A DNA stretch of 64,000 nucleotides from Anaeromyxobacteraceae bacterium (GTDB taxonomy: Bacteria; Myxococcota; Myxococcia; Myxococcales; Anaeromyxobacteraceae): assembly GCA_047602405.1 (NCBI GenBank), contig JASGHJ010000002.1, positions 2,048,001 through 2,112,000 on the forward strand, given 5' to 3'. Below, piece by piece: positions 15,093 to 64,000 of this stretch; positions within the stretch are counted from its first letter, which is position 1; every line of letters begins with the position of its first letter. Below the pieces are notes generated by a model. It was given only the letters and a program-made list of their open reading frames with translations, made no database searches and was not told where the DNA came from. A program made the position numbers and the translations under genes.

Positions 15093-15383
15093 ATGGCGAA
15101 CAAGTTCAACGGCGGCGCGAAGGTCGACGGCGGCTACTACTGGAACCCGAAGAACTGGGAGGTCGAGATCGTCCCCGACGGCGGCGGCACGCTCGCCGCG
15201 CCGGCGGACGTGAGCTACCTCAAGATCCCGCTCCTCGTCGCGATCCCGGCCAGCGTCACCCTCGGCGCGTCGTTCATGATGGCGCTCCCGATGATCGGGT
15301 TCATCGTCTTCGTGTCCGGGCTCTTCCAGCGGCTGTCCGGGAAGTCGGCGGTGACGACGCCGGGCGCGGGCGCGAAGCACTAG
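15093..15383 (+). CDS. Small hypothetical membrane protein (96 aa)
   Basis: [25 protein letters not shown] followed by a hydrophobic hairpin; strong GC3 codon bias. Confidence 0.75.
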
Positions 15384-29329: not shown

Positions 29330-29337
29330 GGGGCCCC

Positions 29338-31305
29338 TCACTTCTTCTTCTCCACGACGTGGCAGCTGTCGCAGTCCCGGGCCGCGAAGGGCGCGTGGAC
29401 CTTTGCCTTGAAGAACTTGGGGTCCTTCGAGGCGTGCGGGGTGTGGCAGCTCACGCAGTCCATCGCCTTCGGCTCGATGGCGAGGTGGGCGGCCGCGAAC
29501 TTCTTCTCCTTCGGGTCGTGGCAGTTGCCGCACATGTCCTGCACCGGCTCGACCGCGAGCGCCGCGAACTTCGAGGCGTGCGGCTGGTGGCAGGTCGCGC
29601 AGTCGGAGACCGGGTCGTGCGCCTTCTCGGCCGCGATCTTGTCCTTCAGCGTCTTGTGGCACGAGAAGCACAGGTCCGGGGTCTTCGCGAGGAGGAGCTT
29701 CTTCAGCCCCGCCTTGTGCGGGCTGTGGCACTTCGAGCACTGGCCCTGGTCGAACGCCGCGTGGACGCTCTTCTGACCGGCGACCTTCTTCACCTCACCC
29801 GCGTGGCACTTCGCGCAGAGGGCCTTCTCGTCGGTCACCAGCATGCCCTGCACGTTCGAGCCGTGCGGGTCGTGGCAGGTCAGGCAGTCGCCCTTCGCGA
29901 AGGGGCCGTGCTTCGTGCCGTTCCCGGCCGCCACCTCGGCCATGAGGTCGCCGTGGCACTTCTTGCAGAGCGCGGCGCCCGCGTCGCGGAGGAGGCTCGG
30001 GTTCGCCGTGGCGTGCCCGTCGTGGCAGACGTCGCAGGTGCCGTCGAGCACCGGCTTGTGCGTGTAGGCGCGCACGAACCGGGTCTCGGCGTCCTTGTGG
30101 CAGGAGTAGCAGACCCGGTCGCTGCGGGACTTCAGCATCCCCGGGAAGGCCGAGCCGTGCGGGTCGTGACAGGCGATGCACTGCTCCTTCTTGAACGGCT
30201 GGTGCACGACCTTCTGCTTCAGGTCCTCCTTCGACTTCGCGTGGCAGGCCTGGCACTGCGCCGTGGCGGCCGCCTTGAGGAGGGCCGGCTCCTTCGAGGC
30301 GTGCGAGGCATGGCAGCTGCCGCAGCCCTGCGCGGAGTCGACCGGCTTGTGCGGCACGACCTTCTTGTCCGTCACTCCGGCGTGGCAGCGGGCGCAGAGG
30401 GCGTTGCCCGCCGCGAGCGTGAGCTTCGGGGAGGCGGAGGCGTGCGGATCGTGGCACCGGATGCAGTCGCCGGCCTTCACCGGTGCGTGGACCACCTTCT
30501 GCCCACCGGTGACGTCCTTCTCGGAGTGGCAGTCGGCGCAGAGCTTCCCGCCCTGGGAGGTGGTGGCGAACGGCTTCCCGGAGCGGGCGGGCTGATGGCA
30601 CGACGAGCAGGTCGCCGAGCTCACCGGGTCGTGAACCGAGGCCTTGAGGAGCGCCTTGCCGTCGGAGGCGTGCGGGTCGTGGCACTTGCTGCAGCTCACG
30701 ACCGGGTACTCCTCGTGCGCCTTCTTGAAGGCGCCCGACGAGGCGGAGTGGCAGGAACCGCACAGCGCGGCCTCCGCCTTCACGAGGAGCTGCGGCTGGT
30801 CGGAGGCGTGCGCGACGTGGCAGACCGCGCAGCCCTGCTTCTTGAGCGGCTCGTGCACCACCCGCTTCTCGAACGGCTTCCTGTCGTGACAGTCGTAGCA
30901 GGAGGCCGCGCCCTCGGCCTTGAGCATGAACTTCGCGTTCGAGCCGTGGGCGTCGTGGCACTGCGTGCACTTGCCCCCCTTGAGCACGGCGTGGACGTGC
31001 TTCTTGTCCATGCCGAGCTTCTCGGGCTTGTGGCAGCCGTAGCAGAGCTGGCTGCCCGGCTGCTTGAGCGCGAGCTTCGGCACGATGCCGTGCCGCAGGT
31101 GGCAGTCCTCGCAGCGCTTCTCCTTCACGGAGGTGTGCAGGACCTTGTTGCCGAGGTACCGGTCGGCGAACTTCTTGTGGCACTCCAGGCAGTCCTTCGT
31201 CTTGAAGGTCCGCTGCTGGGCGCCGGCGGCGGCCGGGACCGCGAGCGCCAGCGCGAGCGCCGCCCAGAGGCCGGTTCGAAGATTGGCGTGCACGGTGGCT
31301 CCCAC
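29338..31305 (-). CDS. 26-heme periplasmic cytochrome c (paired CXXCH repeats)
   Basis: Signal peptide; 26 CxxCH counted. Confidence 0.93.
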   Translation of the reverse strand: MGATVHANLRTGLWAALALALAVPAAAGAQQRTFKTKDCLECHKKFADRYLGNKVLHTSVKEKRCEDCHLRHGIVPKLALKQPGSQLCYGCHKPEKLGMDKKHVHAVLKGGKCTQCHDAHGSNAKFMLKAEGAASCYDCHDRKPFEKRVVHEPLKKQGCAVCHVAHASDQPQLLVKAEAALCGSCHSASSGAFKKAHEEYPVVSCSKCHDPHASDGKALLKASVHDPVSSATCSSCHQPARSGKPFATTSQGGKLCADCHSEKDVTGGQKVVHAPVKAGDCIRCHDPHASASPKLTLAAGNALCARCHAGVTDKKVVPHKPVDSAQGCGSCHASHASKEPALLKAAATAQCQACHAKSKEDLKQKVVHQPFKKEQCIACHDPHGSAFPGMLKSRSDRVCYSCHKDAETRFVRAYTHKPVLDGTCDVCHDGHATANPSLLRDAGAALCKKCHGDLMAEVAAGNGTKHGPFAKGDCLTCHDPHGSNVQGMLVTDEKALCAKCHAGEVKKVAGQKSVHAAFDQGQCSKCHSPHKAGLKKLLLAKTPDLCFSCHKTLKDKIAAEKAHDPVSDCATCHQPHASKFAALAVEPVQDMCGNCHDPKEKKFAAAHLAIEPKAMDCVSCHTPHASKDPKFFKAKVHAPFAARDCDSCHVVEKKK

Positions 31306-38657: not shown

Positions 38658-39971
38658 TTAGTCCTTCGCGTGGCACTTGTTGCACTGGCTGCGGGCCCAG
38701 GGGCCGAACGCGGTCGCAGGGCGGCCGTTGTACGCCGCCTGCTGCTGCGCCTGGCTGTAGCCGTAGTTGATCTTGTTCTCCGTCGTGGACGAGTCGTAGA
38801 TGGCCGCGTTGGAGGCGTCGGCGACCGTCATGAACTCGTTCAGGTAGAAGAACCGCAGCATGCTCTCGAAGCCCGACGCGTGCGCGCGGTGGCAGGAGAG
38901 GCAGGACACGTTGGTGGTCGTGTCCGCCGCCACCGGCGTGGCCGCGCGAGCCTTGAGGCCGTCGTACGTCGCGATCGAGCTGTCCGTGAAGCCGTACTCG
39001 AAGGGAACGAGCGTCGAGTAGCGATTCGCGGAGGCACCAAGAATGCCCGAGGTGATGTACCGGTTGTAGTTGTCAGCGATCTCGGCGGTCAGCTTCGCGC
39101 CGTTGCCAGCCGGGTGGCGGAGGCCGGCCATGCCGGAGGTGTAGGAGTTCTTGAGCATCTCCCCGTGGCAGTTCGCGCACCACTCGGAGGAGTTACGGCC
39201 GAGGGCGTACTGGGTCTGGGTCGTGCCCTCCGACCGGTTGTAGCTCGAGGCGACGACGGCGTCGAACACGGGAGCGGTGAACGCGAAGGAGCCCGTGAGC
39301 GACTTCGGCTGGTAGCCAACGCCGGCGAGGATGCGGTACACGCCGCGGGCGGAGACCCCGGCGATCGGGTTGGCGGAGTTCGTGTACGAACCCGAGCCGA
39401 AGATCGGGAGACCCGTCGAGGCGACGGAGCCGTCCGCGAAGCGGCGGTAACGGCCGTGCGGGTCGTGGCAGGACTGGCAGCCAAGGTTCGCGGCCGGGTA
39501 GGTGCCGCCCGGGGCGACCGTGAGCTCAGGGTCCGCGACGTAGCCGAAGTCCGCCGCGACCACGTTGTGACCGTGGCGCTCGCCGGGGTTGCCGTCCGCG
39601 GCGACCGTGCCGCGGATCGTCACGTTCATGGTCTTCTTCAGCCACGCGAAGTCGCCACCCGGGGTGTTCTCAACCGGCGTGGTGGTCGTGTCGTACGGCG
39701 TCACGCCAGCGGTGGAGATGTGGTAGCTGCTCGGCGCCGTGTCGGCCGCCTGGTGGCAGTTGAGGCACGAGCCGGACTGGTCGTTCGCCTTGAGGAGGTA
39801 CGGGCCCGTCCCCTGCGCGAAGGTGCGGCCGGTCACGTTCGGCGCGCCCTCGAACGAGTTGTGCATCGAGTGGCAGCCCTCGCACTCGGCGACGCCGCCG
39901 GAGTGGAAGGCGTACGCGTTCGTACCCACGAACGCGAGCATCGCCGCGACTGCAATCTTCATGAACTTCAT
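38658..39971 (-). CDS. omcS: OmcS-family hexaheme extracellular (nanowire) cytochrome c
   Basis: Signal peptide, then FHSGGVAECEGCHSMHNS; SCLNCH; PSSYHIST; TPGGDF; APGGTYPA; CHDPHGRYRRF; SEWCANCH; LRHPAGNGAK; CLSCHRAHASGF; ends CNKCHAKD. All match my recollection of Geobacter OmcS; 6 CxxCH. Confidence 0.93.
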   Translation of the reverse strand: MKFMKIAVAAMLAFVGTNAYAFHSGGVAECEGCHSMHNSFEGAPNVTGRTFAQGTGPYLLKANDQSGSCLNCHQAADTAPSSYHISTAGVTPYDTTTTPVENTPGGDFAWLKKTMNVTIRGTVAADGNPGERHGHNVVAADFGYVADPELTVAPGGTYPAANLGCQSCHDPHGRYRRFADGSVASTGLPIFGSGSYTNSANPIAGVSARGVYRILAGVGYQPKSLTGSFAFTAPVFDAVVASSYNRSEGTTQTQYALGRNSSEWCANCHGEMLKNSYTSGMAGLRHPAGNGAKLTAEIADNYNRYITSGILGASANRYSTLVPFEYGFTDSSIATYDGLKARAATPVAADTTTNVSCLSCHRAHASGFESMLRFFYLNEFMTVADASNAAIYDSSTTENKINYGYSQAQQQAAYNGRPATAFGPWARSQCNKCHAKD

Positions 39972-45311: not shown

Positions 45312-48300
45312 TTACAGGTGGCAGCTCCTACACGCGGCCGCCGCCTTGTTCGCGGTGATGTCCACGTTCCCGTTCGCGTGGAGCGCCGGGTTGGTGAGCC
45401 GGACGTTCCCGCCTGCCACCGTGCCCGCCGCGTCGGAGTGGCAGAGCGAGCAGTCGTTCTGCGTCCCGAGCGACCCGTGCGCCCCGGAGTGCCACGCTCC
45501 GTTGAACGTCGGCGCGCCGTGGCAGCTCGAGCAGGTGATCGTCTCGCCCGTCCAGATCGCCGTAGCCCCCTTGCCCGTGTAGTCGAGGGTGTGGGTCACG
45601 TCGTCGGGCGTCGTCCACTGGTAGGTGCCCTGGTAGTTCCCGTGGCAGTACGTCGACGCGCAGCTCGCGGTGCCGCGGGTCCAGGAGGCCGCGACCGGCC
45701 CCTGGAGCGTCCAGGTCTTCGGGAACGACACGTCCAGCACCCCGTCCATGTGCCCGATGTTCGTGAGCGGCGGCGTGACGTGGCAGGCGTCGCACGTGTA
45801 GCCCGCGGTCACCGCCCCGGCGGTCACATGCTTCTGGTGCGCGCCGACGCCGAGCGTGGCCGTCGAGGTGTCGCCGTTCACCGCGGTGGGCGGCGCCGAC
45901 TGGACGTACTTCGGGTCCGCCGTGCCGGTGGCCGTGCGGCTCGAGTCGCCGTGACAGGAGGCGCAGGTGAGGTCGATGATGTCGAGCTTGCCGTTGATGT
46001 GGGTCGCGGCGTTCACCGACGACGACGTGTAGCCGGTGTGGCAGCGGCCGCAGTCCGGCGTCGCCGGGTGCGCCGGCCCGGGCGGCGGCGCCCCGTGGCA
46101 GCTGTTGCAGGCGGTCTGGCCCGCGCTCACCTGCGTCCACTTCGGCGTGGTCGCGACGCCGCCGGCGGCGAGCGTCGCGCCGTGGCAGTAGGTCGAGGCG
46201 CAGGTCGCGGCGTTGCGGTCCCACGCGGGCGCCGCGCCGTCGGTCTTCACGAAGTCGCTGAAGGCCAACTGGCGCACGCCGTCGGCGTGGAGGTTGGTCG
46301 AGGGCACCGGGTGGCAGTCGCTGCAGGCGAAGGCCCGGCCGATGTTCCCGGCGTAGACGTGCTTCTGGTGCGCGCCGACCGCGAGCGTGGTGGTCGCGCT
46401 CTCGTCGCCGGTGCCGGTCGGCGGCGCGGCCCTCTGGAGGTCGGTGCCGGCGCGGTTCGAATCGCCGTGGCAGGACGCGCAGCTGAACGCGAGGAGGTCG
46501 AGGTTGCCGTCCGCGTGCTTCGCCTTCGAGTACTGCAGCCCGGCGTCGGCCGGGTGGCAGCCGCCGCAGGCCGCGCGCTGCGGGTGCGGCGAAGGTGGCG
46601 GGGCGGCGTGGCAGCTGCCGCAGGAGGCCTCGGACGCGCCGCCGGTCCAGGCCGGCGTCGTGTGCGTGCCGCCGGGGAGCGTCGCGCCGTGGCAGTACGA
46701 GCTCGAGCAGCTCGTGCCGTTCCAGGTGGTCGTCTTCCCGTTGATGGTCTTGAACGCGGTCGCGACGGTGCCGTTCGCGTGCGAGAGGTCGGCCGGGACC
46801 GCGTGGCACGCGTCGCAGGCGACGCCGTCGGTCAGGGTCGAGCCGTTCACGTGCGCGGCGTGCGCGCCGACGGCGCGGGTCGAGGTCGCGGTCTCGTTCT
46901 GCGTGCCCTGCGGCGGCGCGGCCTTCTTGAGGTCGGCCGCGGTGTAGCTCGTCACCCGCGTGCCGTGGCAGAAAGTGCAGTTCTGCGCCCAGGTCGCCGA
47001 GCCGCCGAGGTGGCAGCCGGTGCAGGAGACGGCGACCACCCCGCCGAGGAGGTCGGCGCCGTGGCAGCCCTTGCAGCCGCCGAGATCCTGGTTCGCCTGG
47101 AGGCCGTGGTTCGTCGGGAGCACCCAGTCGGTCGGGTGGTACTTCGTGACGTCGACCGTGCCGTTCACGTGCTTGCCGCCCGCGAGGTCGATCGCGCCGC
47201 CGGCGGTGACCGTGTTCGCGTGGCAGGTGCGGCAGGCCGCGAGCGTCGGGTGCGGCGCCGGGGGCGGCGCGCCGTGGCAGGTGCCGCAGGCGGCCTCGGC
47301 CGCGCCGCCGGTCCAGGCCGGGGCGGTCTTCGTGCCGCCGGCGTTCAGCGTGGCGCCGTGGCAGTAGGTCGACGCGCAGGTCTGCGTGGCCGTGTACGAG
47401 GGCGCCGCGCCGTCCTTCGTGGCGAGCGCGCCCCAGGTGAGCTTCCTGACGCCGTCGACGTGCGAGAGGTCGGTCGGGACCGCGTGGCACTCGGTGCACG
47501 CGACGCCGCTCGACATCGTGCCGCCGGAGAGGTGGCTCTGGTGCGCGCCGACGGCGCGGGTGGAGGTCGCGAGCTCGCCCTGCGTGCCGACCGGCGGGGC
47601 GGGCTTGTTCGCCGAGCGGTTCGCGTCGCCGTGGCAGAAGGTGCAGTTCGACTGCCAAGTCGCGCCGTGGCACGTCGCGCAGGAGATGCCGGTGCCGCCG
47701 CCGGCGAGGTCGGCGCCGTGGCAGGACTTGCAGGAGGCGAGGTCGGCGTTCGCCGCGTAGCCGTGCACGGTGGGCGTCGCCCAGTTCGCCGGGTGGTAGT
47801 CGTTCACCTCCACGGTGCCGTTCACGTGCATGCCGTTCGCGACCTTGATGGTCACGTCGTCGTTCTCCACCGTGCCGGGGTGGCAGATGTGGCAGGCGGT
47901 GGACTTCGCGGTGTGCGGGGCCGTGGTGGGTGGGGCGCCGTGGCAGGTGCCGCAGTCGGCCTGCGTCCCGTCGACCTTCGTCCACAGCGGCTGCTGGAGC
48001 GTGCCCCCGGAGAGCGTCTGGCCGTGGCAGTAGACGCTGCAGGTCGCGTTCGTGGTGTCGAACGTGGGCGTGCCCTTCGCGCCGGCGAGGCCGGAGAAGG
48101 TCACCTTCACGACGCCGTCGGAGTGGAGCTGGTCGGCCGGGACCACGTGGCACGCGCTGCACTCGAACGCCTTCGACAGCGGGCCGGCGGCGAGGTGCGC
48201 CTGGTGCGCGCCGACCGCGCGGTCGGTGGTGGCGGTCTCGCCGTCGAGGCCGATGGGCGGCGCGGACTTGAGGAGGTCGGTCGTGACGCGGGTCGAGTCG

Positions 48301-48941
48301 CCGTGGCAGGTGGCGCACCCGCCGGTGAGGTCGACCTGGCCGTTCATGTGCTTCTCGGTCACCGCCGACGGCGCCGAGCCGAGCGTGAGCGAGCCGGCGT
48401 GGCACCTCTGGCAGTCGGTGCGGGCCGGGTGCGGCGCCTTCGGGGGCACACCGTGGCAGCTGCCGCAGGAGGCCTGCGGCGGGGAGACGACGTTCCACTT
48501 CGGGGCCGGGTTCGTGCCGTCGGCGAGCGTCGCGCCGTGGCAGTAGACGGTGCAGGTGGCGGTCTCGCGGTTCCAGCTCGCGGTGAAGCCGGCCGGCGCG
48601 GCGAGGGGGCCGAAGCGCACCGCGACCTTGCCGTCGATGTGGGCGAGCGGGTTCGCGGCGTCGGGCGCCGGGTGGCACGCCGCGCAGTCAAGCTTGGGCG
48701 AGAGGTGCGCGGGGCCGAGGACGTGCGCGGAGTGCGCGCCGACCGAGAGCGCGGTCGGGCTCGACTCGCCCTTCACGGACCGCGGCGGGGCCCCGCCGTC
48801 GCTCTCGACGCCACCGTGGCACCGGGTGCACTTCGACTCGGTGGCGCCCTCGGCGCCGACGACGGTGCGGGACTGGCAGCCGGCCCCCGCGACGAGCGCG
48901 GCAGCGGTGATCACCACGAGGTGGAGCGAGCGCGACGTCAT
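45312..48941 (-). CDS. Giant repetitive multiheme cytochrome c lipoprotein (35 putative hemes; CxxxxCH/CxxCH type)
   Basis: Lipobox-like AGAGC; 29 CX2CH, 2 CX3CH and 4 CX4CH counted; six modules each containing VGAHxxH. Confidence 0.92.
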   Translation of the reverse strand: MTSRSLHLVVITAAALVAGAGCQSRTVVGAEGATESKCTRCHGGVESDGGAPPRSVKGESSPTALSVGAHSAHVLGPAHLSPKLDCAACHPAPDAANPLAHIDGKVAVRFGPLAAPAGFTASWNRETATCTVYCHGATLADGTNPAPKWNVVSPPQASCGSCHGVPPKAPHPARTDCQRCHAGSLTLGSAPSAVTEKHMNGQVDLTGGCATCHGDSTRVTTDLLKSAPPIGLDGETATTDRAVGAHQAHLAAGPLSKAFECSACHVVPADQLHSDGVVKVTFSGLAGAKGTPTFDTTNATCSVYCHGQTLSGGTLQQPLWTKVDGTQADCGTCHGAPPTTAPHTAKSTACHICHPGTVENDDVTIKVANGMHVNGTVEVNDYHPANWATPTVHGYAANADLASCKSCHGADLAGGGTGISCATCHGATWQSNCTFCHGDANRSANKPAPPVGTQGELATSTRAVGAHQSHLSGGTMSSGVACTECHAVPTDLSHVDGVRKLTWGALATKDGAAPSYTATQTCASTYCHGATLNAGGTKTAPAWTGGAAEAACGTCHGAPPPAPHPTLAACRTCHANTVTAGGAIDLAGGKHVNGTVDVTKYHPTDWVLPTNHGLQANQDLGGCKGCHGADLLGGVVAVSCTGCHLGGSATWAQNCTFCHGTRVTSYTAADLKKAAPPQGTQNETATSTRAVGAHAAHVNGSTLTDGVACDACHAVPADLSHANGTVATAFKTINGKTTTWNGTSCSSSYCHGATLPGGTHTTPAWTGGASEASCGSCHAAPPPSPHPQRAACGGCHPADAGLQYSKAKHADGNLDLLAFSCASCHGDSNRAGTDLQRAAPPTGTGDESATTTLAVGAHQKHVYAGNIGRAFACSDCHPVPSTNLHADGVRQLAFSDFVKTDGAAPAWDRNAATCASTYCHGATLAAGGVATTPKWTQVSAGQTACNSCHGAPPPGPAHPATPDCGRCHTGYTSSSVNAATHINGKLDIIDLTCASCHGDSSRTATGTADPKYVQSAPPTAVNGDTSTATLGVGAHQKHVTAGAVTAGYTCDACHVTPPLTNIGHMDGVLDVSFPKTWTLQGPVAASWTRGTASCASTYCHGNYQGTYQWTTPDDVTHTLDYTGKGATAIWTGETITCSSCHGAPTFNGAWHSGAHGSLGTQNDCSLCHSDAAGTVAGGNVRLTNPALHANGNVDITANKAAAACRSCHL

Positions 48942-54815: not shown

Positions 54816-55553
54816 CTACCCGGCCTTGTGCGCCGGGGCGGCGCCGTGGCCGCCGTGGCCGTGGCCGCCGACGAGCTTCTCGACCGGCACGCCCTCCATG
54901 CGGGCGAGCTCCACCGGGTGCTCGTGCAGCATGCGCTCGCGGGAGATCTTGCCCGTGAAGATGCCGGTGTCGAACGGGAAGACGTCCGGGTTCAGGTGCG
55001 CGTTGAAGATGTGCCAGATGGTGATGACGAAGAACGCCATCAGGCCCTCGTTCGAGTGCGCCATCTTCGCGGCCGGGATGATCTGGCCGGGGATGATCAT
55101 CGAGGCCGTCACCGGGAAGAACAGGACGAGGCCGGTGACCACCATGATCACGTTGCCGGCGACGAGGCCCCAGTACTCGAACTTCTGCTTGTAGTCGTAA
55201 CGGTCGTACAGCGGCTGCTGATCCGTCACGCCCATGTAGTACTTGAGCTGGGTGAACGCGTCGACGAAGTCCTGCCGCGTCGGCACCATCGACCAGCGCG
55301 CCTTCTTCTGGATCATCAGCAGGAAGGTGTTGCCGAAGTGGACCACCGTCGAGGCGGCGAGCACGAGCCCGCAGATCCGGTGGACCCACCGCATGGTGTC
55401 GAAGCCGAAGAACAGGTGGACGGTCGTCTGGGCCCACCCGGCCGCGTAGAACTTCTGCGGCAGGCCGGTGATGCACAGGAGCACGAAGGTCACCATGGTG
55501 ACCATGTGCTCGATGCGCTGGCTGAGGTTGAAGCGGACGACGTACGTGCTCAT
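54816..55553 (-). CDS. Diheme cytochrome b (FdnI/HydC-like; CbcB or CbcL b-domain-like)
   Basis: RFNLSQRIEH, ITGLPQKF, WVHR, YDYKQKFEYW, AHSNE, IWHIFNAH, EHPVE; His-rich tail. Confidence 0.88.
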   Translation of the reverse strand: MSTYVVRFNLSQRIEHMVTMVTFVLLCITGLPQKFYAAGWAQTTVHLFFGFDTMRWVHRICGLVLAASTVVHFGNTFLLMIQKKARWSMVPTRQDFVDAFTQLKYYMGVTDQQPLYDRYDYKQKFEYWGLVAGNVIMVVTGLVLFFPVTASMIIPGQIIPAAKMAHSNEGLMAFFVITIWHIFNAHLNPDVFPFDTGIFTGKISRERMLHEHPVELARMEGVPVEKLVGGHGHGGHGAAPAHKAG

Positions 55554-56593
55554 CGATTCACCACGGTGCGCCAGAGGTGCAGCGCGATCTGGAGGGAGAG
55601 CCCGCCCACCATGAACGGGATCATGAACTTGTAGAAGAGGAGGACCACCCAGACGATCGGCGCCTTCTCCGGCGACGGCTCGTAGTGGGAGAGCCACGCC
55701 CTCGGGAAGGTCGCCGTCGCGCCCTCGTGGCAGCGCGAGCAGGTCTTCTGCAGGTTCGCCTGGATGACGGTCGAGGTCGGGTCGTTCGTCTTCTGGATGT
55801 CGTGGATGCCGTGGCAGTCGGTGCAGCCGGCCACGATGCGCTGCGCCGGGCCCTTCTTCTGGCCCTTCGACAGCTGGGCGCCCATGCCGTGGAAGTCGGC
55901 GAGGTACGTCTTCACGACGTTCGGCGAGATGCCGTACTTGTTCATCAGCTCCACGTTGGAGTGGCAGCGGCCGCACATCTCGGCGGTGCGGAGCGAGAGG
56001 GCGCCGCCGTCGCGCGGGTCGGTCGCCTCGTGCGGGCGGTGGCAGTCGGTGCAGACCGGCACGTCCTGGTTCGTGTCGACCGCGCGGCCGTGGACCGACT
56101 GCTTGTAGGTCGCCGCCTGCGTCGGGTGGCAGCCCATGCACTTCGCGGCCACCTTCGTGCGCGACTCCTTCGCGGAGACGATGTCGTGCGCACCGTGGCA
56201 CTCGCCGCACGCCGGCGTCTTCTGCGAGCCGGCCGCGATCTTCGCGAAGTGGATGCCGTCGAGGAGCTTCGTGTACTTGTCGAGGTGGCAGCCCTTGCAG
56301 TTCTCGAAGTACGCGCGCGACGCCTCGTGGCGGGTCTTGTACGGGAGCTCGCCGGTGGCGTGGTCCGCCTTCTTCCCGACGTGGCAGTCCGTGCACTTGT
56401 TGTTCTCGCCGTGCACCGACTTGGCGAAGACCTCCTTGTTCACGTACAGGCCGAGCTTCTCGCCCGACGGGAGGTCGAAGGTCTGGTTGGGATCCTCGTG
56501 ACAGCCGAGGCACTCCTCCGACTCGGCCGGGATGCCGGCGCGGGCCGGCAAGGCGACCGTCAGACAGAGGAGCGGAAGGATGAATCTCGTCAT
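55550..56593 (-). CDS. Nonaheme cytochrome c with a C-terminal membrane anchor (CbcL c-domain/CbcA-like)
   Basis: Signal peptide; 9 CxxCH counted; C-terminal TM; ATGA overlap with the cytochrome b gene. Confidence 0.9.
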   Translation of the reverse strand: MTRFILPLLCLTVALPARAGIPAESEECLGCHEDPNQTFDLPSGEKLGLYVNKEVFAKSVHGENNKCTDCHVGKKADHATGELPYKTRHEASRAYFENCKGCHLDKYTKLLDGIHFAKIAAGSQKTPACGECHGAHDIVSAKESRTKVAAKCMGCHPTQAATYKQSVHGRAVDTNQDVPVCTDCHRPHEATDPRDGGALSLRTAEMCGRCHSNVELMNKYGISPNVVKTYLADFHGMGAQLSKGQKKGPAQRIVAGCTDCHGIHDIQKTNDPTSTVIQANLQKTCSRCHEGATATFPRAWLSHYEPSPEKAPIVWVVLLFYKFMIPFMVGGLSLQIALHLWRTVVNR

Positions 56594-57007: not shown

Positions 57008-58783
57008 TCAGCGTGCCCGCGGCGCCCAGCCCTCGGCCTCGAGCCGCGCGAGCCGGACCTCGACCGGCTCCCGGGTCGGCGCCGCCGCGAGCCGCGCGCG
57101 CGCCTCGGCGGCGCGCCCCGACCTGAGCAGCACGATCGCGAGCCCGTCCTCGAGGAGCGCGTCTCCCGGCGATCGCTCGAGCGCCGCGCGGAGGCCCCCC
57201 TCCGCTGCGCGCGGGTCCCCCGCCTCCAGCCGCGCCATCGCGAGCCAGAACGCCGGCGGGGCGACGCGCGGATACGCGCTGGCGACGGGCGCGAGCACGT
57301 CCCCTGCCAGGGCCGGTTCGCCCGCGCGGAGCAGGATGAGCCCGAGCTCCTGCCCGAACTCGGGCGACGGGCGTAGGGCCTCGGCCTCGCGGTGGGCAAC
57401 GACCGCCTCGGGGGCGCGGCGGCGCTGGGCGAGCCAGAGCGCCCGCGCCCTGAGGCGCGTCTCGGGAGACGTCGCGTCCCTGGCCACCCGCTCCAGCACC
57501 TCGTAGGCCTCTCGCACCCGGCCGGCCTCGCCGAGCTGGTCGGAGTACATCCAGGCCGCGAAGAGCGCGTCGGGGGCCTCGGCCGCCGCGCGCGCCCAGA
57601 GCGCGAGGTCGGAGGCGTAGGCCCGCGAGCGCTGGAACGTCCAGGTCCCTGCCCCGAGCACGAGCGCCGCGGCCGCGACCGCGGCGAGCCGCTCCCCGGC
57701 GCGGCCTCCGAGCCGCGCGAGCCCCCAGCCCCAGAGCGCCGTGGCGCCCGGGAGCGCGAGGTACTGGAGGTGATTGGCGACCGGCGCGATCTGCCGGTAG
57801 GCCATGTCGACGAGCCCCAGCACGGGGAGGACGAGGAGCAGGTGCCACCCGAGGGCGAGCCGCAGCGGCCCGAGCGCGCGCGCCCGCCCGGACACGAGCC
57901 CGCCGATCACCGCTACCCCGCCGGCCGCGCGCACCAGGTACGCGACCGCCTCCCGGGGCGGAGCCTCCGGGTACGTCACCGCGACGCCCCAGGGGAAGAA
58001 GGCGCGCTGCACGTAGTCACCGAGCGCGTACCCCGCGTCGGCGAGGCGCGCCAGCGCCCCGCGAGGCACCACCGTCGCCGTGCTCATCGCGTTGCCGTGC
58101 TGGAAGAGCAGCGTCCCCGCGCCCGCGACGAGCGAGAGCACCGCGAACGGCGCGAGCCTGCGCAGCGTCCTCTGGTCCAGGGGTGCGCCGAGCGCCCACT
58201 CCGCTCCGAGGACCGCGAGGGGGAACGCCACCACCGAGGTCTTCGCGAGGAGCGCCAGGGCGAAGAGCCCGAGCGACGCGGCGCGCAGCGTCCGGCCCCG
58301 CTCCCCGCCGTCGCGCGCGTGCAGCCACGCGAGCGCGGAGCCGAAGAGGAGCACCCCCGAGAGCACGTTCTTGAGCTCGGACACCCACGCGACGGACTCG
58401 ACCGCCACGGGGTGGACCGCGAAGAGCGCGGCGCCCACCCACGCGCCGGGCACCCTCGCGCGCAGGAGCACGCGCCACAGCAGCAAGGCCGCCGCGGCGT
58501 CCAGGGCCACGTTGATCGCATGGTACCCGGCCGCGGAGTCCCCGAAGACTCGCCACTCGAGCCAGAGGACCGACCAGGTGAGCGGCCAGTAGTCCCACGC
58601 GTCGGCGGTGAACCAGATCCGCCAGAGCGGGCCGCGCACGACGCTCTCGGGCCCGAGGAGCGCGTGATCGTCGTAGACGAAGCCGCCCGCGAGGGCCGGC
58701 GCGAAGGCCGCGAACACGAGCAGCACCAGCGCGGCGCCGAGCGCGAGCTCGGGCGGGGCGGCGCGTGTCGCGGGGCGGGGCAC
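57008..58783 (-). CDS. TMTC-like GT-C membrane protein with TPRs (copy 6)
   Basis: FVYDDHAL, DYWPLTW, HPVAVESVAWVSELKNVL, LAKT, TPR-like C-terminus. Confidence 0.83.
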   Translation of the reverse strand: MPRPATRAAPPELALGAALVLLVFAAFAPALAGGFVYDDHALLGPESVVRGPLWRIWFTADAWDYWPLTWSVLWLEWRVFGDSAAGYHAINVALDAAAALLLWRVLLRARVPGAWVGAALFAVHPVAVESVAWVSELKNVLSGVLLFGSALAWLHARDGGERGRTLRAASLGLFALALLAKTSVVAFPLAVLGAEWALGAPLDQRTLRRLAPFAVLSLVAGAGTLLFQHGNAMSTATVVPRGALARLADAGYALGDYVQRAFFPWGVAVTYPEAPPREAVAYLVRAAGGVAVIGGLVSGRARALGPLRLALGWHLLLVLPVLGLVDMAYRQIAPVANHLQYLALPGATALWGWGLARLGGRAGERLAAVAAAALVLGAGTWTFQRSRAYASDLALWARAAAEAPDALFAAWMYSDQLGEAGRVREAYEVLERVARDATSPETRLRARALWLAQRRRAPEAVVAHREAEALRPSPEFGQELGLILLRAGEPALAGDVLAPVASAYPRVAPPAFWLAMARLEAGDPRAAEGGLRAALERSPGDALLEDGLAIVLLRSGRAAEARARLAAAPTREPVEVRLARLEAEGWAPRAR

Positions 58784-58861: not shown

Positions 58862-59554
58862 TCAGACCGTCAGGAACGACTGCACGAGCTTCCGCCAGCC
58901 GTCCTCGCCCATCAGCCAGGGCTCGGGGGCGAGCAGCTCGCCGCCGTCGGCGGCCGCGAAGCCGAGCTGGTCCTCGAGGAACCGGCTCCACCGCGCGGAC
59001 TCGCGCTTCAGCCAGCCCTCGGCCGTCGGGCCCTGCGGGAGCGCCGACCAGCTCGCGTCGGCGGGGCGCAGCGCGACGAGCCAGCCCTTGCCGTAGCCGT
59101 CGCGCTTCACGAGCGCGGGGTCGCGGACGACCGCCGCGTTCACGCCGACCACGAACGCCGGCACCGGCGTGCGGATCTGGATCTCGCGCCCGCCGCCGGA
59201 CAGCGTCGCGATGACGTCGCCGCGCTCGACCTTCGTCCCGGCGCGCGGCACCTCGACGGAGGTCACCGACGGCAGGAGCCGCTGGGCGATGTCGTCGACG
59301 CCGAGCTCGAGCGCCCCGCCCTTCCTGGCCGCGAGCCAGGTGTGGCCGGGGGCGTAGGCGACGCCCGGACGGAAGCGGACGCCGGCGACCGAGGCGAGGC
59401 CGAGCTTTCGCTCGTGGCTCCGCTGGAGGCCGCGGCGGACGAGGGCGAAGAGGATCGCGGGGATCGCGAGGACCGCCGCCATCAGGACGACGATGCCGAC
59501 CCGGGCGGCGATGCCGGAGAGGAAGACGCCGAGGCTGGTGAGCAGTGCGGTCAT
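58862..59554 (-). CDS. Membrane-anchored GcvH-like protein lacking the lipoyl-lysine
   Basis: N-terminal TM; GHTWL, LGVDDIAQ, VN...DP.LV..D.YGKGWL; the ESVK position reads SGGG. Confidence 0.8.
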   Translation of the reverse strand: MTALLTSLGVFLSGIAARVGIVVLMAAVLAIPAILFALVRRGLQRSHERKLGLASVAGVRFRPGVAYAPGHTWLAARKGGALELGVDDIAQRLLPSVTSVEVPRAGTKVERGDVIATLSGGGREIQIRTPVPAFVVGVNAAVVRDPALVKRDGYGKGWLVALRPADASWSALPQGPTAEGWLKRESARWSRFLEDQLGFAAADGGELLAPEPWLMGEDGWRKLVQSFLTV

Positions 59555-59612
59555 GACCCGTTCCCCCCGGAAGCATCGGCCGGCCCCGCCGAGGCGGGGC
59601 CGGCCTGGTGGA

Positions 59613-59966
59613 TTACTGCGCGTGACACATGCTGCAGTCGTCGAAGGCGAACGCCTTCTTGCCCTTGCCGTGGCACTGGCCGCACGCCTCGCCCTGCTTC
59701 TCCATGCGATCGTGGGTGATGGCCGGGCCGCGCTTCTCGGCCGAGCGGCCCAGGATGCTGAAGCCGCTCGGCTGGGTGTGGCAGGTGACGCAGTTCGGCT
59801 TCTTGTCGTCGACGTGCGTGGCGTGGTCGAACTTCACCACGCCGGGGCTGTCGGGCGACTGCGGCATCACGACGGGCTGCGGCAGCTTCGCGAGGCCGCC
59901 CGCGAGGGCGCGGCCACCGAGGAGGAGCGCCCCCAGGGACACTGCGATGAGTGCGAGCTTCTTCAT
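59613..59966 (-). CDS. Triheme c7-type periplasmic cytochrome
   Basis: Signal peptide; VKFDHATH; CVTCH, CGQCH, CSMCH. Confidence 0.9.
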   Translation of the reverse strand: MKKLALIAVSLGALLLGGRALAGGLAKLPQPVVMPQSPDSPGVVKFDHATHVDDKKPNCVTCHTQPSGFSILGRSAEKRGPAITHDRMEKQGEACGQCHGKGKKAFAFDDCSMCHAQ

Positions 59967-59979
59967 GGCGTCGCTCCGA

Positions 59980-60720
59980 TCAGGTGAGGAAGTGCTGGCG
60001 GGCGAGCTGATCCCAGTCGTCGCCGGCGAGGGTCTGGGCGATGCCGTGGATCGGCGAGCCGCCGTCCTGCATCACGTGGACGAGCTGCGGGTCCATGCGG
60101 AGCGCGATGGCCTCGCCCGCGTCCTCCAGGAAGCGGCGGGCGGGGTTCTCGGCCAGGAGCTGCCGGAAGTTCGCGGCGAGGCGGGGCGCCTTCACCTTGA
60201 ACAGCCAGCCGGCGCCGTACGGGTCCTGCAGGGAGTCGGGCTTCTCGCGGGCGGCGGCGTTGACCGCGACCACGGTGCCGTCGACCGGCGACAGCATGGG
60301 GACCATGCGGGCGTCGTGGCCGATCTCGAGGGCCGGCTCGCCCTGGGCGACCTTCTCGCCCAGCGCGGGGAGGTCCACGCTGCCGGGCCCGACGAGCTTC
60401 GCGGCGAAGTCGTCGATGCCCACCGACACGAGGCCGTCGGCCTCGAGCCGCGCCCAGGTGTGGCCCGGGTGCAGGTGCACGCCGGCCGGGACCTGGAACC
60501 AGCCCTGCGCCGGGCGGAGCGCGGTGGCGCCGGCCGCCCGCGCCGCGGGGGCGCGGAGGACCTGCGTCGCCGGCTTCTTCACGTCCACCTGGATCGCCGC
60601 CTCCACCTTCTTGCCGCCCTGGACGTAGCGCCAGAACGGGATGAACAGGAGCAGGTAGCTGACCGCGAGGATGTACTCGGCCGCCTTGGCGCCGTAGATG
60701 CTCAGGAAGTCGTGGCTCAT
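59980..60720 (-). CDS. Second membrane-anchored GcvH-like protein lacking the lipoyl-lysine
   Basis: N-terminal TM; HPGHTWA, VGIDDFA, SPVDGTVVAVN, DPYGAGWLFKVK; the ESVK position reads GHDA. Confidence 0.82.
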   Translation of the reverse strand: MSHDFLSIYGAKAAEYILAVSYLLLFIPFWRYVQGGKKVEAAIQVDVKKPATQVLRAPAARAAGATALRPAQGWFQVPAGVHLHPGHTWARLEADGLVSVGIDDFAAKLVGPGSVDLPALGEKVAQGEPALEIGHDARMVPMLSPVDGTVVAVNAAAREKPDSLQDPYGAGWLFKVKAPRLAANFRQLLAENPARRFLEDAGEAIALRMDPQLVHVMQDGGSPIHGIAQTLAGDDWDQLARQHFLT

Positions 60721-60730
60721 GGCGTCCTCC

Positions 60731-61951
60731 TCAGTGCGCCGCGGGGAACCGCGGGTCTTCCTTCAGGATGGGCATGCGGTTGACGATCCAGCGGAAGAGC
60801 AGGACGCCGATGAGGCACAGCGTCACCGACACCCAGATCTCCATCCAGCTCGGGACGTACCGGACCTCGTTCTGCCAGTTGAACGCGAAGACCGAGACGT
60901 TGAGGCGGTTGAAGGCGATGCCGCACACGCCGAGCACGCCCGCGATGCGGACGAGCACGATGTTCTCGTTCCGCGCGCCGATGGCGTACAGCATCGACGG
61001 CAGGAGCACGAACCCGAGGATCTCGGTGAGGAACAGCGTGCCGTAGCCGGTGGTGAGGTAGCCCCACGCGTGCCCGTCGATCACGCCCTGCAGCTTCAGG
61101 AAGAAGTAGGCGAAGAAGACGAGCGCGCCGGCCTTGGCGAGCCCGAACTGCAGCTTGTCGAGGTCGACGTGGTGGTCGACCTGGCTCTGGAAGGCGCGGT
61201 GCGAGAGCCAGCCCTCCACGACGACCATCGAGATGCCGGCCATGATCGCGGAGATGAAGAAGAAGATGAAGATGAAGGGCGTGTACCAGAGCGGGTGGAG
61301 CTTCGTCGGGGCGAGCAGGAAGAGCGACCCGAGCGCCGACTGGTGCATGGTCGAGAACATGACCGAGAGCACCGTGAGGGCGATGAGCGCCTTCTTCATC
61401 ATGGCCTGCCACTTCTTCAGGCCGAGCCACTCGGAGGCGGGGAGCGTGAACTCGAGGAAGAGCACCGTCGAGTAGCACATCACGCACCAGGCGACCTCGA
61501 AGAGGGCCGAGGCGGTGCCGTAGTTGAAGATGGCCATGACGATGTTCCACGGCCGGCCGAGGTCGGCGAGCAGGCCGACGATGGCCATCACGTAGCCGAG
61601 GAACGCGGTCAGGATCGCGGGCCGCTCGATCGGGTGGTACTGCTTCAGCCCGAAGAGCTGGACGGTCGCGCCGATCGTGAACCCGCCGGCGGCGAGCACG
61701 ATGCCGGTCATCATGTCGAACCCGATCCAGAGCCCCCACGGGAAGGACTGGTTCAGGTTCGTCGTGGCGGCGAGGCCCACGATGAAGCGGATGGCGAGCA
61801 GCGGGAGGCCGACGGCGAGGATGATCGCCGAGACGATGTTGAACGGGGTGATGAGCGACTTCAGGTACGCCTTGAAGTCCATCCCCAGGAAGATCTTCTC
61901 GCGGACGAACGCCTGGACGGGCGACATGGCGACGGTCTCCGGGCTAGCCAT
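60731..61951 (-). CDS. NrfD/PsrC-family integral membrane subunit (HybB/HmcC-like)
   Basis: PWGLWIGFD, LAAGGF, DLGRPW, FEVAWCVMCY, STMHQSALGSL, KLHPLW, NRLNV, YVPSWME. Confidence 0.92.
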   Translation of the reverse strand: MASPETVAMSPVQAFVREKIFLGMDFKAYLKSLITPFNIVSAIILAVGLPLLAIRFIVGLAATTNLNQSFPWGLWIGFDMMTGIVLAAGGFTIGATVQLFGLKQYHPIERPAILTAFLGYVMAIVGLLADLGRPWNIVMAIFNYGTASALFEVAWCVMCYSTVLFLEFTLPASEWLGLKKWQAMMKKALIALTVLSVMFSTMHQSALGSLFLLAPTKLHPLWYTPFIFIFFFISAIMAGISMVVVEGWLSHRAFQSQVDHHVDLDKLQFGLAKAGALVFFAYFFLKLQGVIDGHAWGYLTTGYGTLFLTEILGFVLLPSMLYAIGARNENIVLVRIAGVLGVCGIAFNRLNVSVFAFNWQNEVRYVPSWMEIWVSVTLCLIGVLLFRWIVNRMPILKEDPRFPAAH

Positions 61952-62822
61952 GGTGGTCTTCCTTCTCGTGCTTGGCGGCCTCGTCGCGGCTCTTCGAGAA
62001 CGCGAAGAGTCCCATGAGGAGCGGCGGCCAGAGGGTCATCACGAACGGCGGGGCGCCGAGCGCGCCGGAGACGAGCTCCGGGATGGGCTTCTTCGGGACG
62101 TCGTCGCGGAAGCCGAGCTTGTCGAGCTCGACGTCGGAGATGTAGAGCCAGCTCGTCCCGCCGGCCTCGGTCTCGCCGTAGACGTGCGGGATGTACTTGC
62201 CCGGGTTGGTGTAGATGCGGGTCTTCGCGAGCTCGAGCAGCTCGTCACGCTTGCCGAACGTGAGCGCGCCGGTCGGGCAGACCTCGGTGCACGCGGGCTT
62301 CAGGCCCTTCGCCTGCCGCTCCGCGCAGAAGGTGCACTTGCGGACCCGCGGCTTCCACGACTCGTACTCGTACTTCGGCACGTCGAACGGGCACGCGATC
62401 ATGCAGTAGCGGCAGCCCATGCACTTGTTCGCGTTGTAGACGACCGGGCCGGTGGGCAGCTTGTCCATCGCGCGGACCGGGCAGGCCGACGCGCAGCCGG
62501 GCGCGATGCAGTGCATGCACTGCTTCTTCGCGAACCGGACGGTGCCGTCCTCCTTCGCCGTCTTGTTGACGACCGTGAACACCTGCTGCGACATCTCACG
62601 GCGCCCGTCCATCACGGCGTCGTCCACCGGCGGGGCCGGCAGCTCGTTCGACTCGGAGCACGCGGCCTCGCAGCCCCGGCAGCCCACGCACAGCGTGGTG
62701 TCGACGAGCACGCCGGGCGTCGTGACGGCGCCCTCGTGCACTGCAGCGTTCGCCGCGGAAGCGCCGGCTGCACCGGCTGCCACCGCGGCGGTCTGGATGA
62801 ATCCTCTGCGTCCGATCTTCAT
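61944..62822 (-). CDS. Tat-exported 4Fe-4S subunit (HybA/HmcB-like) with a C-terminal anchor
   Basis: MKIGRRGFI; CVGCRGCEAAC; CMHCIAPGCASACP; CMGCRYCMIACPF; KCTFC...ACTEVCP; YGETEAGGT. Confidence 0.93.
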   Translation of the reverse strand: MKIGRRGFIQTAAVAAGAAGASAANAAVHEGAVTTPGVLVDTTLCVGCRGCEAACSESNELPAPPVDDAVMDGRREMSQQVFTVVNKTAKEDGTVRFAKKQCMHCIAPGCASACPVRAMDKLPTGPVVYNANKCMGCRYCMIACPFDVPKYEYESWKPRVRKCTFCAERQAKGLKPACTEVCPTGALTFGKRDELLELAKTRIYTNPGKYIPHVYGETEAGGTSWLYISDVELDKLGFRDDVPKKPIPELVSGALGAPPFVMTLWPPLLMGLFAFSKSRDEAAKHEKEDHHG

Positions 62823-62838
62823 AAGGCCCCTCCCTCTT

Positions 62839-62919
62839 TCAGCCCTGTCGGGCCGCCACCAGGTTGAGCGTCCCGAGGACCGCCACCCCGACCAGCGCCA
62901 CCACGAAGCCGACCAACAT
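62839..62919 (-). CDS. Putative 26-aa single-TM microprotein leading the operon
   Basis: MLVGFVVALVGVAVLGTLNLVAARQG, preceded by GAAAGGGA, lying between the sigma54 promoter and the Fe-S gene. Confidence 0.45.
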   Translation of the reverse strand: MLVGFVVALVGVAVLGTLNLVAARQG

Positions 62920-62986
62920 GGCTGGTTCCCTTTCACTGCAGAGAGCTGCGTTGGCGTTGCGTGAACCCCTCACGCATGTGGGTAAG

Positions 62987-63002
62987 AGCATCACCCGCGC
63001 CA
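62987..63002 (-). promoter_or_regulatory. sigma54 promoter of the Fe-S/NrfD/GcvH-like operon
   Basis: Minus strand TGGCGCGGGTGATGCT (GG-N10-GC). Confidence 0.65.
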
Positions 63003-63379
63003 ACGCGGCCCGCTGCAGCCCGGGGCCTCGAAACGCGCGCATTCACGCACCTTTCCGACCTTCACGGAAGGTGTGCAGTGTCGCGCGCGCATTCGCGCAC
63101 GGGCCCCGCGTGGTGATTCTCGACGGACCAGGAGCACGGACCCGCGACGAAGCGCGCTCACCACGAGTGATCCCACGCGCTTGCGAGCGCCCGGCCGGCG
63201 CGACGCCGCGATCGCTGAGATCCTCCACGCCCGTAACGTGATTCAACGGGCGCAAAGCACGTGTGGTGGCGGGTTCTTGCGCGCAGCCGCGCGCACGCGC
63301 CGGCGCGGCCGCGCGCGAGGGCGCAGCCCGCGGGCGACGCGAGCGGAGCACGAGCGGAGAGGCCGGGACGGCGAGCGGA

Positions 63380-64000
63380 TCAGCCCTGCTTCGCGACCTC
63401 TTCCTCGCCGTCGCGCCTGAGGCCCCACTTCTTCATCTTGTTGTAGAGCGTCACCCGGTCGATGCCGAGGATGCGGGCCGACTGGCTCACGTTGCCGCCG
63501 GTGTGGGCCAGCACCGCCGAGACGTGGCGGCGCTCGACCTCCTCCAGCGAGGCCATCGTGCCCGGCCGCGGCGGCGCCTCGCCGCGCGCGGGCAGGCCGA
63601 GGTCGGAGGTCTGGATCTGCGTGCCGGTCGCGACCACCGCGCCGCGCTCGAGCACGTTCCTGAGCTCGCGGACGTTGCCCGGCCAGTCGTGCGCCATGAT
63701 GGCCGCGAGCGCCTCGGCGGAGAGGCCGTCGAGCTTCTTCTTCATCTCGAGGGCGAGCCGCTCCACGAAGCTCTCCACGAGCAGCGGGATGTCCTCCCGG
63801 CGGTCGCGGAGCGGCGGGATCAGGATGGGGATCACGTTGAGGCGGTAGAAGAGATCCTCGCGGAACCGCCCCTCGGCGACCGCCTTGCGGAGGTCGCGGT
63901 TCGTCGCGGCGATGATCCGCACGTCGACGTCGATCTGCTCGTTGCCGCCCACCCGGTGGAACTTCCGCTCCTCGAGCACCCGGAGGAGGTCGAGCTGGAG
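63380..64000 (-). CDS. sigma54-dependent activator, C-terminal part (5' end lies outside the window)
   Basis: DVRIIAATNRDL, FREDLFYRLNV, WPGNVRELRN, GNVSQSARILGIDRVTLYNKM. Confidence 0.93.
   Translation of the reverse strand, partial: LQLDLLRVLEERKFHRVGGNEQIDVDVRIIAATNRDLRKAVAEGRFREDLFYRLNVIPILIPPLRDRREDIPLLVESFVERLALEMKKKLDGLSAEALAAIMAHDWPGNVRELRNVLERGAVVATGTQIQTSDLGLPARGEAPPRPGTMASLEEVERRHVSAVLAHTGGNVSQSARILGIDRVTLYNKMKKWGLRRDGEEEVAKQG

Follow-up and report, generated by a model that had tools for sequence, protein, structure and literature searches.

GcvH-fold proteins without the lipoyl lysine beside an Nhc/Hmc-type redox module and a sigma54 signalling set in an Anaeromyxobacteraceae bacterium

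Introduction

Redox modules made up of an iron-sulphur (Fe-S) protein, an NrfD-family membrane protein and a cytochrome, with no catalytic subunit, have been described before. NhcABCD consists of a cytochrome, an Fe-S subunit, an NrfD subunit and NhcD, and is presented as a cytochrome:quinone oxidoreductase (PMC8076601). Modules of a tail-anchored Fe-S protein, a HybB-like protein and a cytochrome c are described in a preprint that names HmcD a hydrophobic peptide (bioRxiv 10.1101/2023.11.02.564894), and NrfCD complexes without a catalytic subunit are called known in a paper that covers the NrfCD pair of Melioribacter (PMC3534657). HmcC has been grouped with the quinone reductases QrcD and HybB, its function and direction being called uncertain (PMC6303296). 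The lipoyl lysine is reported to be strictly conserved in all aligned GcvH and LbpA proteins (10.64898/2026.10.01.755906). Here we describe an operon of an Anaeromyxobacteraceae bacterium in which such a module is joined by two proteins with the fold of the glycine cleavage H protein GcvH, H-like A and H-like B. It lies on the minus strand of the 64-kilobase (kb) stretch of DNA that was analysed (contig JASGHJ010000002.1, positions 2,048,001 to 2,112,000; "the window").

A first-pass annotation, made from the sequence alone, had read the unit as a sigma54 promoter followed by genes for a microprotein, an Fe-S protein with a twin-arginine translocation (Tat) signal, an NrfD-family protein, a GcvH-like protein, a triheme cytochrome c7 and a second GcvH-like protein. 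All these elements are present, and the unit contains no NiFe or molybdopterin subunit. The same annotation called it HybAB/NrfCD-like; it is a redox module, but the closest families are HmcB and HmcC. The Fe-S protein scores 349 bits with the HmcB model NF045715 (cut-off 420) versus 234 bits with HybA, and the NrfD protein 461 bits with the HmcC model NF045714 (cut-off 550) versus 248 bits with HybB. HmcB and HmcC are thus the top NCBIfam families, though below their curated cut-offs, with HybA and HybB second. Of the 20 NhcC residues in Table 2 of PMC8076601, 17 are matched in the window HmcC via numbering offsets of 11, 6 and 4, used in place of an alignment, those without a match being Y87, S200 and S218; the quinone site and proton path of HmcC are predicted to be intact. 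An HmcC-c7 fusion occurs in locus L048, and L053 has a protein of equal length with three haem motifs. These fusions support c7 as the redox partner; the c7 gene is limited to 13 of 60 loci of the H-fold family. The label quinol:cytochrome c7 oxidoreductase holds as far as a c7/quinone module is concerned, while the direction from quinol to c7 is not established, HmcC being classed with quinone reductases in the accessible part of PMC6303296.

The redox core is a known Nhc/Hmc-type module of HmcB, HmcC, HmcD and a cytochrome. Like NhcABCD of Desulfovibrio desulfuricans, as far as the accessible part of its description goes, it combines a cytochrome, a subunit with four [4Fe-4S] clusters, an NrfD subunit and a small D subunit, and has no catalytic subunit. 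It differs in that its operon encodes a triheme c7 where Nhc has the nine-haem NhcA, in a D subunit that carries a presumably cytoplasmic H fold, and in its additional parts: another H-fold protein, a microprotein and the set of haem-motif kinase, peptidase and sigma54 activator. With HmcABCDEF of Desulfovibrio vulgaris it shares the order hmcB-hmcC-hmcD, the top family scores and a hydrophobic HmcD peptide after hmcC, here as the N-terminus of H-like A. However, apart from the scores under the cut-offs, the 16-haem HmcA, the cytochrome b HmcE and the cytoplasmic HmcF are absent from the locus. Genome-wide tblastn searches gave one weak 95-residue match elsewhere for HmcA of L165, and none for HmcE of L136 or for a partial HmcF query. 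Since these subunits were not found in the genome, the unit would work like Nhc and stand outside Hmc. The tail-anchored Fe-S modules and the Melioribacter NrfCD pair are likewise stand-alone and lack a catalytic subunit, but no H-fold proteins are mentioned in the accessible parts of those sources, and the preprint finds no flanking genes that are conserved. HybAB of hydrogenase-2 has related Fe-S and NrfD subunits; here, by contrast, HybO and HybC are missing from the unit, and a separate hydrogenase-2-like cluster lies at G000:C1 ~1.95 Mb. The first-pass annotation had cited no characterised complex of this composition. We found no paper on this composition as a whole, whereas modules without a catalytic subunit are already published.

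Fusion of HmcD to a GcvH fold

On sequence evidence, H-like A joins the small subunit HmcD to a GcvH fold without the lipoyl lysine, a fusion that is new. The HmcD model NF045712 is matched by 29 of 116 family members (best E-value 6e-8), and for residues 1–37 of the window protein HmcD is the sole match among 18,950 models (E 0.043). A profile of nothing but A-type N-termini recovers the true HmcD gene of L136 (26.5 bits, E 5.5e-7 among 2239 proteins) and also stand-alone HmcD in the Hmc loci L165 (18.1 bits) and L166 (16.0 bits). When the A N-termini and the HmcD of L136 are compared profile to profile, the probability is 83.8 with an E-value of 7.9e-6. The gene directly 3' of hmcC is an A type in 41 of 65 hmcC loci, some of them from genomes present twice; in the others it is a helix-only gene (2), a Cys-rich type (2), another gene (11), or there is none or an edge (9). 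A helix-only gene for 52 amino acids occupies the slot after hmcC in L055, L141 and L157. In one genome, G284 (L150:9044-10250), the assembly has hmcC in two frames.

In the model of H-like A (predicted local distance difference test 87, from 116 sequences), a loose linker joins an N-terminal helix to a complete H fold, and the C-terminal extension bearing the DGG motif is predicted well. The H fold is recognised by Foldseek with an E-value of 2.6e-12, and superposes on the pea H protein with a Z-score of 19.5 and a root mean square deviation of 1.7 over 129 residues. Both H-like proteins had been given an N-terminal transmembrane helix. This stands for B; in A the helix falls under the hydropathy threshold of 1.6, yet the predicted structure shows it at residues 5–34, where it is homologous to HmcD. 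The nearest named homologs of H-like A are Anaeromyxobacter proteins.

The H-fold family

In pairwise alignments, the lipoyl lysine of solved GcvH chains falls on A137 in H-like A and on G122 in H-like B, so that its loss, as first read, is borne out. In a profile alignment the lipoyl column is lysine in 8 of 258 family rows (3 of 116 in alignment A2) versus 19 of 19 canonical GcvH proteins, and the glutamate upstream of the site is retained in 28 of 258 versus 19 of 19. Rows below 50 bits were removed from the 258-row alignment, which includes some duplicates; four truncated or divergent short rows are in neither group. The shared DGG extension, the other feature read from the sequence, is real: the motif is 96–98% conserved and located past the end of canonical GcvH. 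Residues conserved specifically in the family are D103 (95%), D219-G220-G221 and W236, besides H87. The lipoate carriers GcvH, GcvH-L and LbpA have the same fold, but the H-like proteins differ from them in lacking the lipoyl lysine and in having a membrane anchor and the DGG extension. With the NCBIfam model for GcvH-related proteins, NF045810, the two score 24.5 and 25.1 bits, under its cut-off of 150 bits.

At 50% identity, 342 clusters have an E-value of at most 1e-30, and record titles cover at least seven phyla. The named matches carry the label "glycine cleavage H", and the Atlas returns solely GCV_H-named clusters. In a tree from a quick search, from which no order of events was drawn, canonical GcvH lies to one side (support 94) and the A types are mostly grouped. 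No paper on this family or its link to signalling was found in the literature covered, subscription journals being mostly outside that coverage.

Among 301 sequences, 141 were classed as A (HmcD helix), 119 as B (plain helix) and 25 as C (soluble, with a Cys-rich N-terminus), with 16 unclear. For A, 125 of 134 proteins have more lysine and arginine on the C-terminal side of the helix than before it; for B, 107 of 116 do. The H domain is also found in fusions: receiver-H (P0190), cytochrome-helix-H (P0210), H-helix-c7 (P0138, an H-like A), tandem H-H (P0124, L100) and 2Fe-2S/4Fe-4S-H of the NuoG type (L050, L162). Charge bias and fusions together point to a cytoplasmic H domain. In L052 (9272-11116) and L161 (9423-11240), proteins of 605–614 amino acids have a Cys-rich start, a middle part without assignment and a C-terminal H fold, and adjoin small kinase-like and Fe-S genes.

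A small gene, Cys4, upstream in many relatives, corresponds to the N-terminus of the C type (E 1e-8); it was not found in this genome. A microprotein-like open reading frame (ORF) precedes hmcB in 26 of 63 loci; in a count of what fills this slot, it is a microprotein in 22 and a B type in 15 of 63. With a profile of the microprotein, two B-type N-termini come out on top among 2123 (27.4 and 26.0 bits; next 16.1), and the microprotein is probably an anchor that became separated from a third H-like gene, one of the B type. Because helix-only genes, the Cys4 gene and the microprotein all match N-termini of the family, H domains appear to have been lost repeatedly while their anchors were kept.

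Association with a signalling set

Upstream of the operon lie genes for a sigma54 activator, an archaemetzincin and a histidine kinase, a set for which the model NF033823 gives evidence (150.8 bits, cut-off 145). Of 61 kinase sensor segments, 59 carry two haem motifs, one of them spaced CxxxxCH. The sensor domain has no Pfam or PDB sequence match; its fold is of the Cache/PAS type, with GSU0935 at rank 3 in Foldseek (E 1.3e-5). The Geobacter periplasmic sensors GSU0935 and GSU0582, which bind c-type haem, share this fold, but differ in having one haem motif versus two here, and in being chemoreceptors where ours is a histidine kinase. The zinc motif of the archaemetzincin is intact. A second archaemetzincin-like gene, unrelated to the cluster, lies directly after gyrB at L160:8853-9419.

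The H-folds track this signalling set of kinase, archaemetzincin and sigma54 activator more than they track the redox core. From species-representative genomes, 79 loci were read, 60 with family members and 19 with canonical GcvH. Of the 60, kinase and activator are present in 39, HmcB and HmcC in 36, both in 32 and the archaemetzincin in 36, versus none of these sets at any of the 19 canonical loci. Among the 38 family loci of at least 15 kb, the corresponding numbers are 30 for kinase and activator, 27 for HmcB and HmcC and 25 for both. Single genomes separate the two. G170 (96% complete) keeps hmcB-hmcC-hmcD-c7, with no H-fold, haem kinase or enhancer found, and G244 (97% complete) keeps kinase, peptidase, activator, Cys4 gene and a B type, with no HmcC homolog found. 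In G236, G271 and G075 the hmcB-hmcC-c7 operon has no H gene; G236 and G271 each have two A and B pairs elsewhere. In loci of the Desulfobacterales type, C types occur with peptidase, activator and a PAS kinase adjoining HdrA-like genes, and in L050, L051 and L162 with the same partners adjoining NuoE/NuoF-like genes. Across 80 of the 301 sampled genomes, picked by H-fold presence and including kin that are not independent, HmcC was detected in 30 of the 37 that have H-folds versus 6 of the 43 that lack them, and the peptidase family in 35 of 37 versus 9 of 43, some of these matches being the unrelated copy near gyrB. A lack of conservation of the GcvH-like genes next to NrfD/HybA homologs had been named as evidence against the first-pass reading, and it is partly seen: these genes are solo or relocated in some genomes, and absent where the module persists without the kinase.

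Promoter, enhancer and regulon

Most of the 36 related units have a sigma54-like site between -40 and -150 relative to their first gene. Enhancer sites were predicted with a palindrome matrix from 31 upstream regions of other genomes. Enhancer and sigma54 site occur together in 29 of the 36 units (31 of which are training rows) versus 1 of 170 control intergenic strands. The palindrome, GTYGAGWWWCTCRAC in the window, scores 18.1 and 17.6 bits in two held-out genomes. From its position, the adjacent activator presumably binds it. A genome-wide enhancer scan is unspecific, with more than 380 sites above 14 bits. Elsewhere in this genome two A copies stand alone with a microprotein, a third has decayed, and there is one solo B copy; all of these have a sigma54-like site, and the solo copies share the enhancer palindrome of the operon (11.6–14.4 bits). 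The third enhancer-promoter-microprotein cassette, at G000:C1 ~1767600-1768150 (-), is followed by a short H-like A remnant only. A 19-base motif at five sites in the genome, three of which are recent duplicates of a single cassette, is lineage-specific and was set aside in favour of the palindrome. Public RNA runs come from relatives only (share at most 0.09), and contigs of four runs cover the coding bins, giving no information on strand, level or this strain.

Table 1. Elements of the operon and of its upstream region (positions refer to the window)
Element	Position	Strand	Description
Promoter-like site, sigma54 (-24/-12), TGGCGCGGGTGATGCT	63002-62987	-	10/12 consensus positions
Microprotein	62919-62839	-	ORF, 26 amino acids; hydrophobic single helix
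HmcB/NhcB-like Fe-S protein	62822-61944	-	Tat signal, C-terminal anchor, 16 Cys = four predicted [4Fe-4S] clusters
HmcC/NhcC-like NrfD-family membrane subunit	61951-60731	-	PF03916, E 1e-18
H-like A	60720-59980	-	PF01597, 64.7 bits
H-like A, parts	60610-60720 (helix)		residues 1-37 HmcD-like helix; linker; 75-205 Lys-less GcvH fold; 206-246 DGG helical extension
Triheme cytochrome c7	59966-59613	-	predicted signal peptide; 3 CxxCH; TIGR04257, 49.3 bits (cut-off 40)
H-like B	59554-58862	-	plain hydrophobic anchor, Lys-less GcvH fold, DGG extension; PF01597, 64.7 bits
Enhancer site 1, predicted	63110..63124		~120 base pairs upstream of promoter; 16.3 bits, a score not reached in up to 60 shuffles
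Enhancer site 2, predicted, palindrome GTYGAGWWWCTCRAC	63214..63228		15.8 bits, matrix trained without this genome
Enhancer site 3, predicted	63233-63247		weaker
Sigma54 activator, 3' part only in window	63380..64000	-	receiver-AAA+-helix-turn-helix, 460 amino acids; Pfam; GAFTGA
Archaemetzincin and HAMP histidine kinase	outside window, upstream of activator (locus L004)		181 amino acids; 592 amino acids, two haem-c motifs

Neighbouring genes

Downstream, at 54816-56593 (-), the window contains a nine-haem cytochrome with a C-terminal helix (gene 55550-56593) and a cytochrome b561 gene; in front of this pair, neither an enhancer nor a sigma54 site was found. The pair may be akin to a split CbcL. 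In many relatives the pair lies directly 3' of the operon, and after it come an M48/M56 peptidase, an uncharacterised membrane protein, and a dCache kinase accompanied by a regulator of the LuxR type. A membrane protein with C-terminal tetratricopeptide repeats (57008-58783, -) separates H-like B from the nine-haem gene; in the loci read it occupies this position in this genome and G195 only, and several genes resembling it are present elsewhere in the window. Further multihaem cytochrome-like genes, judged by N-terminal sequence, lie at 28058-31293, 38658-39971 and 45312-48941. The gene at 15093-15383 (+) encodes a small GGYYW-motif protein that matches no Pfam family, and in relatives a pair of GGYYW-motif genes ends the conserved cluster (L037:1445-2349). 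In the hydrogenase-2-like and formate dehydrogenase-like clusters (L006:7940-10207 and L005:8087-10294), the Fe-S and NrfD parts are fused in single ORFs of 755 and 735 amino acids; the formate dehydrogenase large subunit in this genome is called as three ORFs.

Discussion

The reading that we prefer, and to which we give about an even chance, is that the H-folds are cytoplasmic, membrane-tethered adaptors linking the Nhc-type redox module to its own regulator. As they accompany a sensor-kinase system with haem motifs and have no lipoate lysine, they are likely to act in signalling and not as electron carriers. Electrons would pass between the periplasmic c7 and menaquinone via HmcB and HmcC; HmcB would be on the periplasmic side because of its Tat signal and C-terminal tail, and HmcC may reduce menaquinone in an electrogenic and reversible way, as proposed for QrcD, HybB and HmcC. 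H-like A may dock onto HmcC via its HmcD helix. With its two c-type haems, the kinase could sense the redox state on the c7/HmcB side, and the activator, together with the kinase and the archaemetzincin, would likely turn the operon on. The H-folds, tethered on the cytoplasmic face by the HmcD helix and by the helix of B, would join the module to the regulator. The least supported step is that they contact kinase, activator or peptidase and exert feedback within the regulon, for which co-occurrence, fusions and co-regulation are the grounds. An indirect link to hydrogenase or formate dehydrogenase through c7 may exist as part of this reading.

A broader proposal, which we make tentatively and hold to be somewhat less than an even chance, is that the H-fold without lipoate, together with its DGG extension, forms a signal-transduction module not recognised before. 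It would couple redox enzymes (the quinone-linked HmcBCD, or NADH-linked NuoEFG-like and HdrA clusters) to a sigma54 two-component system that contains an archaemetzincin, and the Nhc-type complex would mainly be the sensor arm of the two-haem kinase.

Several observations weigh against the preferred reading. The HmcD match of the window protein itself is weak (13.8 bits, cut-off 34). Redox core and signalling genes occur together in 32 of the 60 loci, and with both sets in most loci, few genomes, all of them drafts, separate an association with one from an association with the other. Nine of the 60 have neither set nearby and four have HmcB and HmcC without the signalling pair, some of these loci being short or at contig ends. 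The sampling is skewed to Anaeromyxobacteraceae and includes some genomes twice. G019 and G221 keep a B type with no peptidase between kinase and activator, and L074 has an A type with no peptidase nearby, so there is no strict dependency. The enhancer-promoter pair was not found in 7 of the 36 units, a binding partner was found for neither H-fold, and co-occurrence could reflect a shared regulon of which the H-like proteins are mere outputs.

A structural or assembly role of the H-folds within the redox complex, with the kinase link mere co-regulation, is the alternative nearest to the first-pass annotation. It would fit the fusion of A to HmcD directly 3' of hmcC, the enrichment of HmcC in genomes with H-folds, and the fact that genomes in which A and B are relocated from hmcBC retain both. 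We think it unlikely, because G170, G019 and G221 have lost the H domain of A and kept the helix alone, G244 retains B with HmcC not found, and H-folds also occur at PAS-kinase loci beside HdrA or NuoEF genes. The first-pass annotation had left open a structural, regulatory or ligand-binding subunit; regulatory fits best, and the H-folds are not an obligatory part of the redox module. The ligand-binding option, in which H-fold and DGG extension form a new ligand or metal site or a substrate of the archaemetzincin and a small molecule or a cleavage event, not a protein contact, carries the signal, draws on the conserved family-specific residues, on the frequency of the peptidase with its intact zinc motif, and on three of three helix-only loci that lack an adjacent peptidase. 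It too seems improbable, since in G019 and G221 B is retained although no peptidase adjoins it, and some peptidase matches are the gyrB-adjacent copy.

A role of the unit as a spare electron-transfer arm, serving a hydrogenase or formate dehydrogenase from another locus, is very unlikely. HybA and HybB come second among the families, and the genome has a hydrogenase-2-like and a formate dehydrogenase-like cluster, but these have their own Fe-S/NrfD subunits, and HmcB and HmcC far outscore HybA and HybB. Lipoylation on another lysine, making the H-like proteins dithiol carriers like LbpA or GcvH-L, is hardly credible: the fold is intact and the column after the lipoyl site is lysine in 58 of 258 rows, but it is arginine in 116 and in both window proteins, B has no lysine column above 37%, the conserved lysines of A belong to the HmcD helix or to structural positions, and a complete gcvT-gcvH-gcvP operon with a normal lipoyl motif lies elsewhere in the genome.

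What is new here is the HmcD fusion; the H-fold family and its link to the signalling set were found in no paper of the literature covered, and the redox core is already known. The role of Hmc/Nhc-type complexes and of the small HmcD subunit is unsettled, the function and direction of HmcC being called uncertain in PMC6303296; with a naturally occurring HmcD fusion, variants reduced to the helix and a defined sigma54 regulon, that role becomes testable in a culturable genus. If the H-folds do signal, the lipoyl-carrier fold would gain a use free of lipoate, bacterial archaemetzincins would gain a genomic context, and a large misannotation as "glycine cleavage H" would be corrected.

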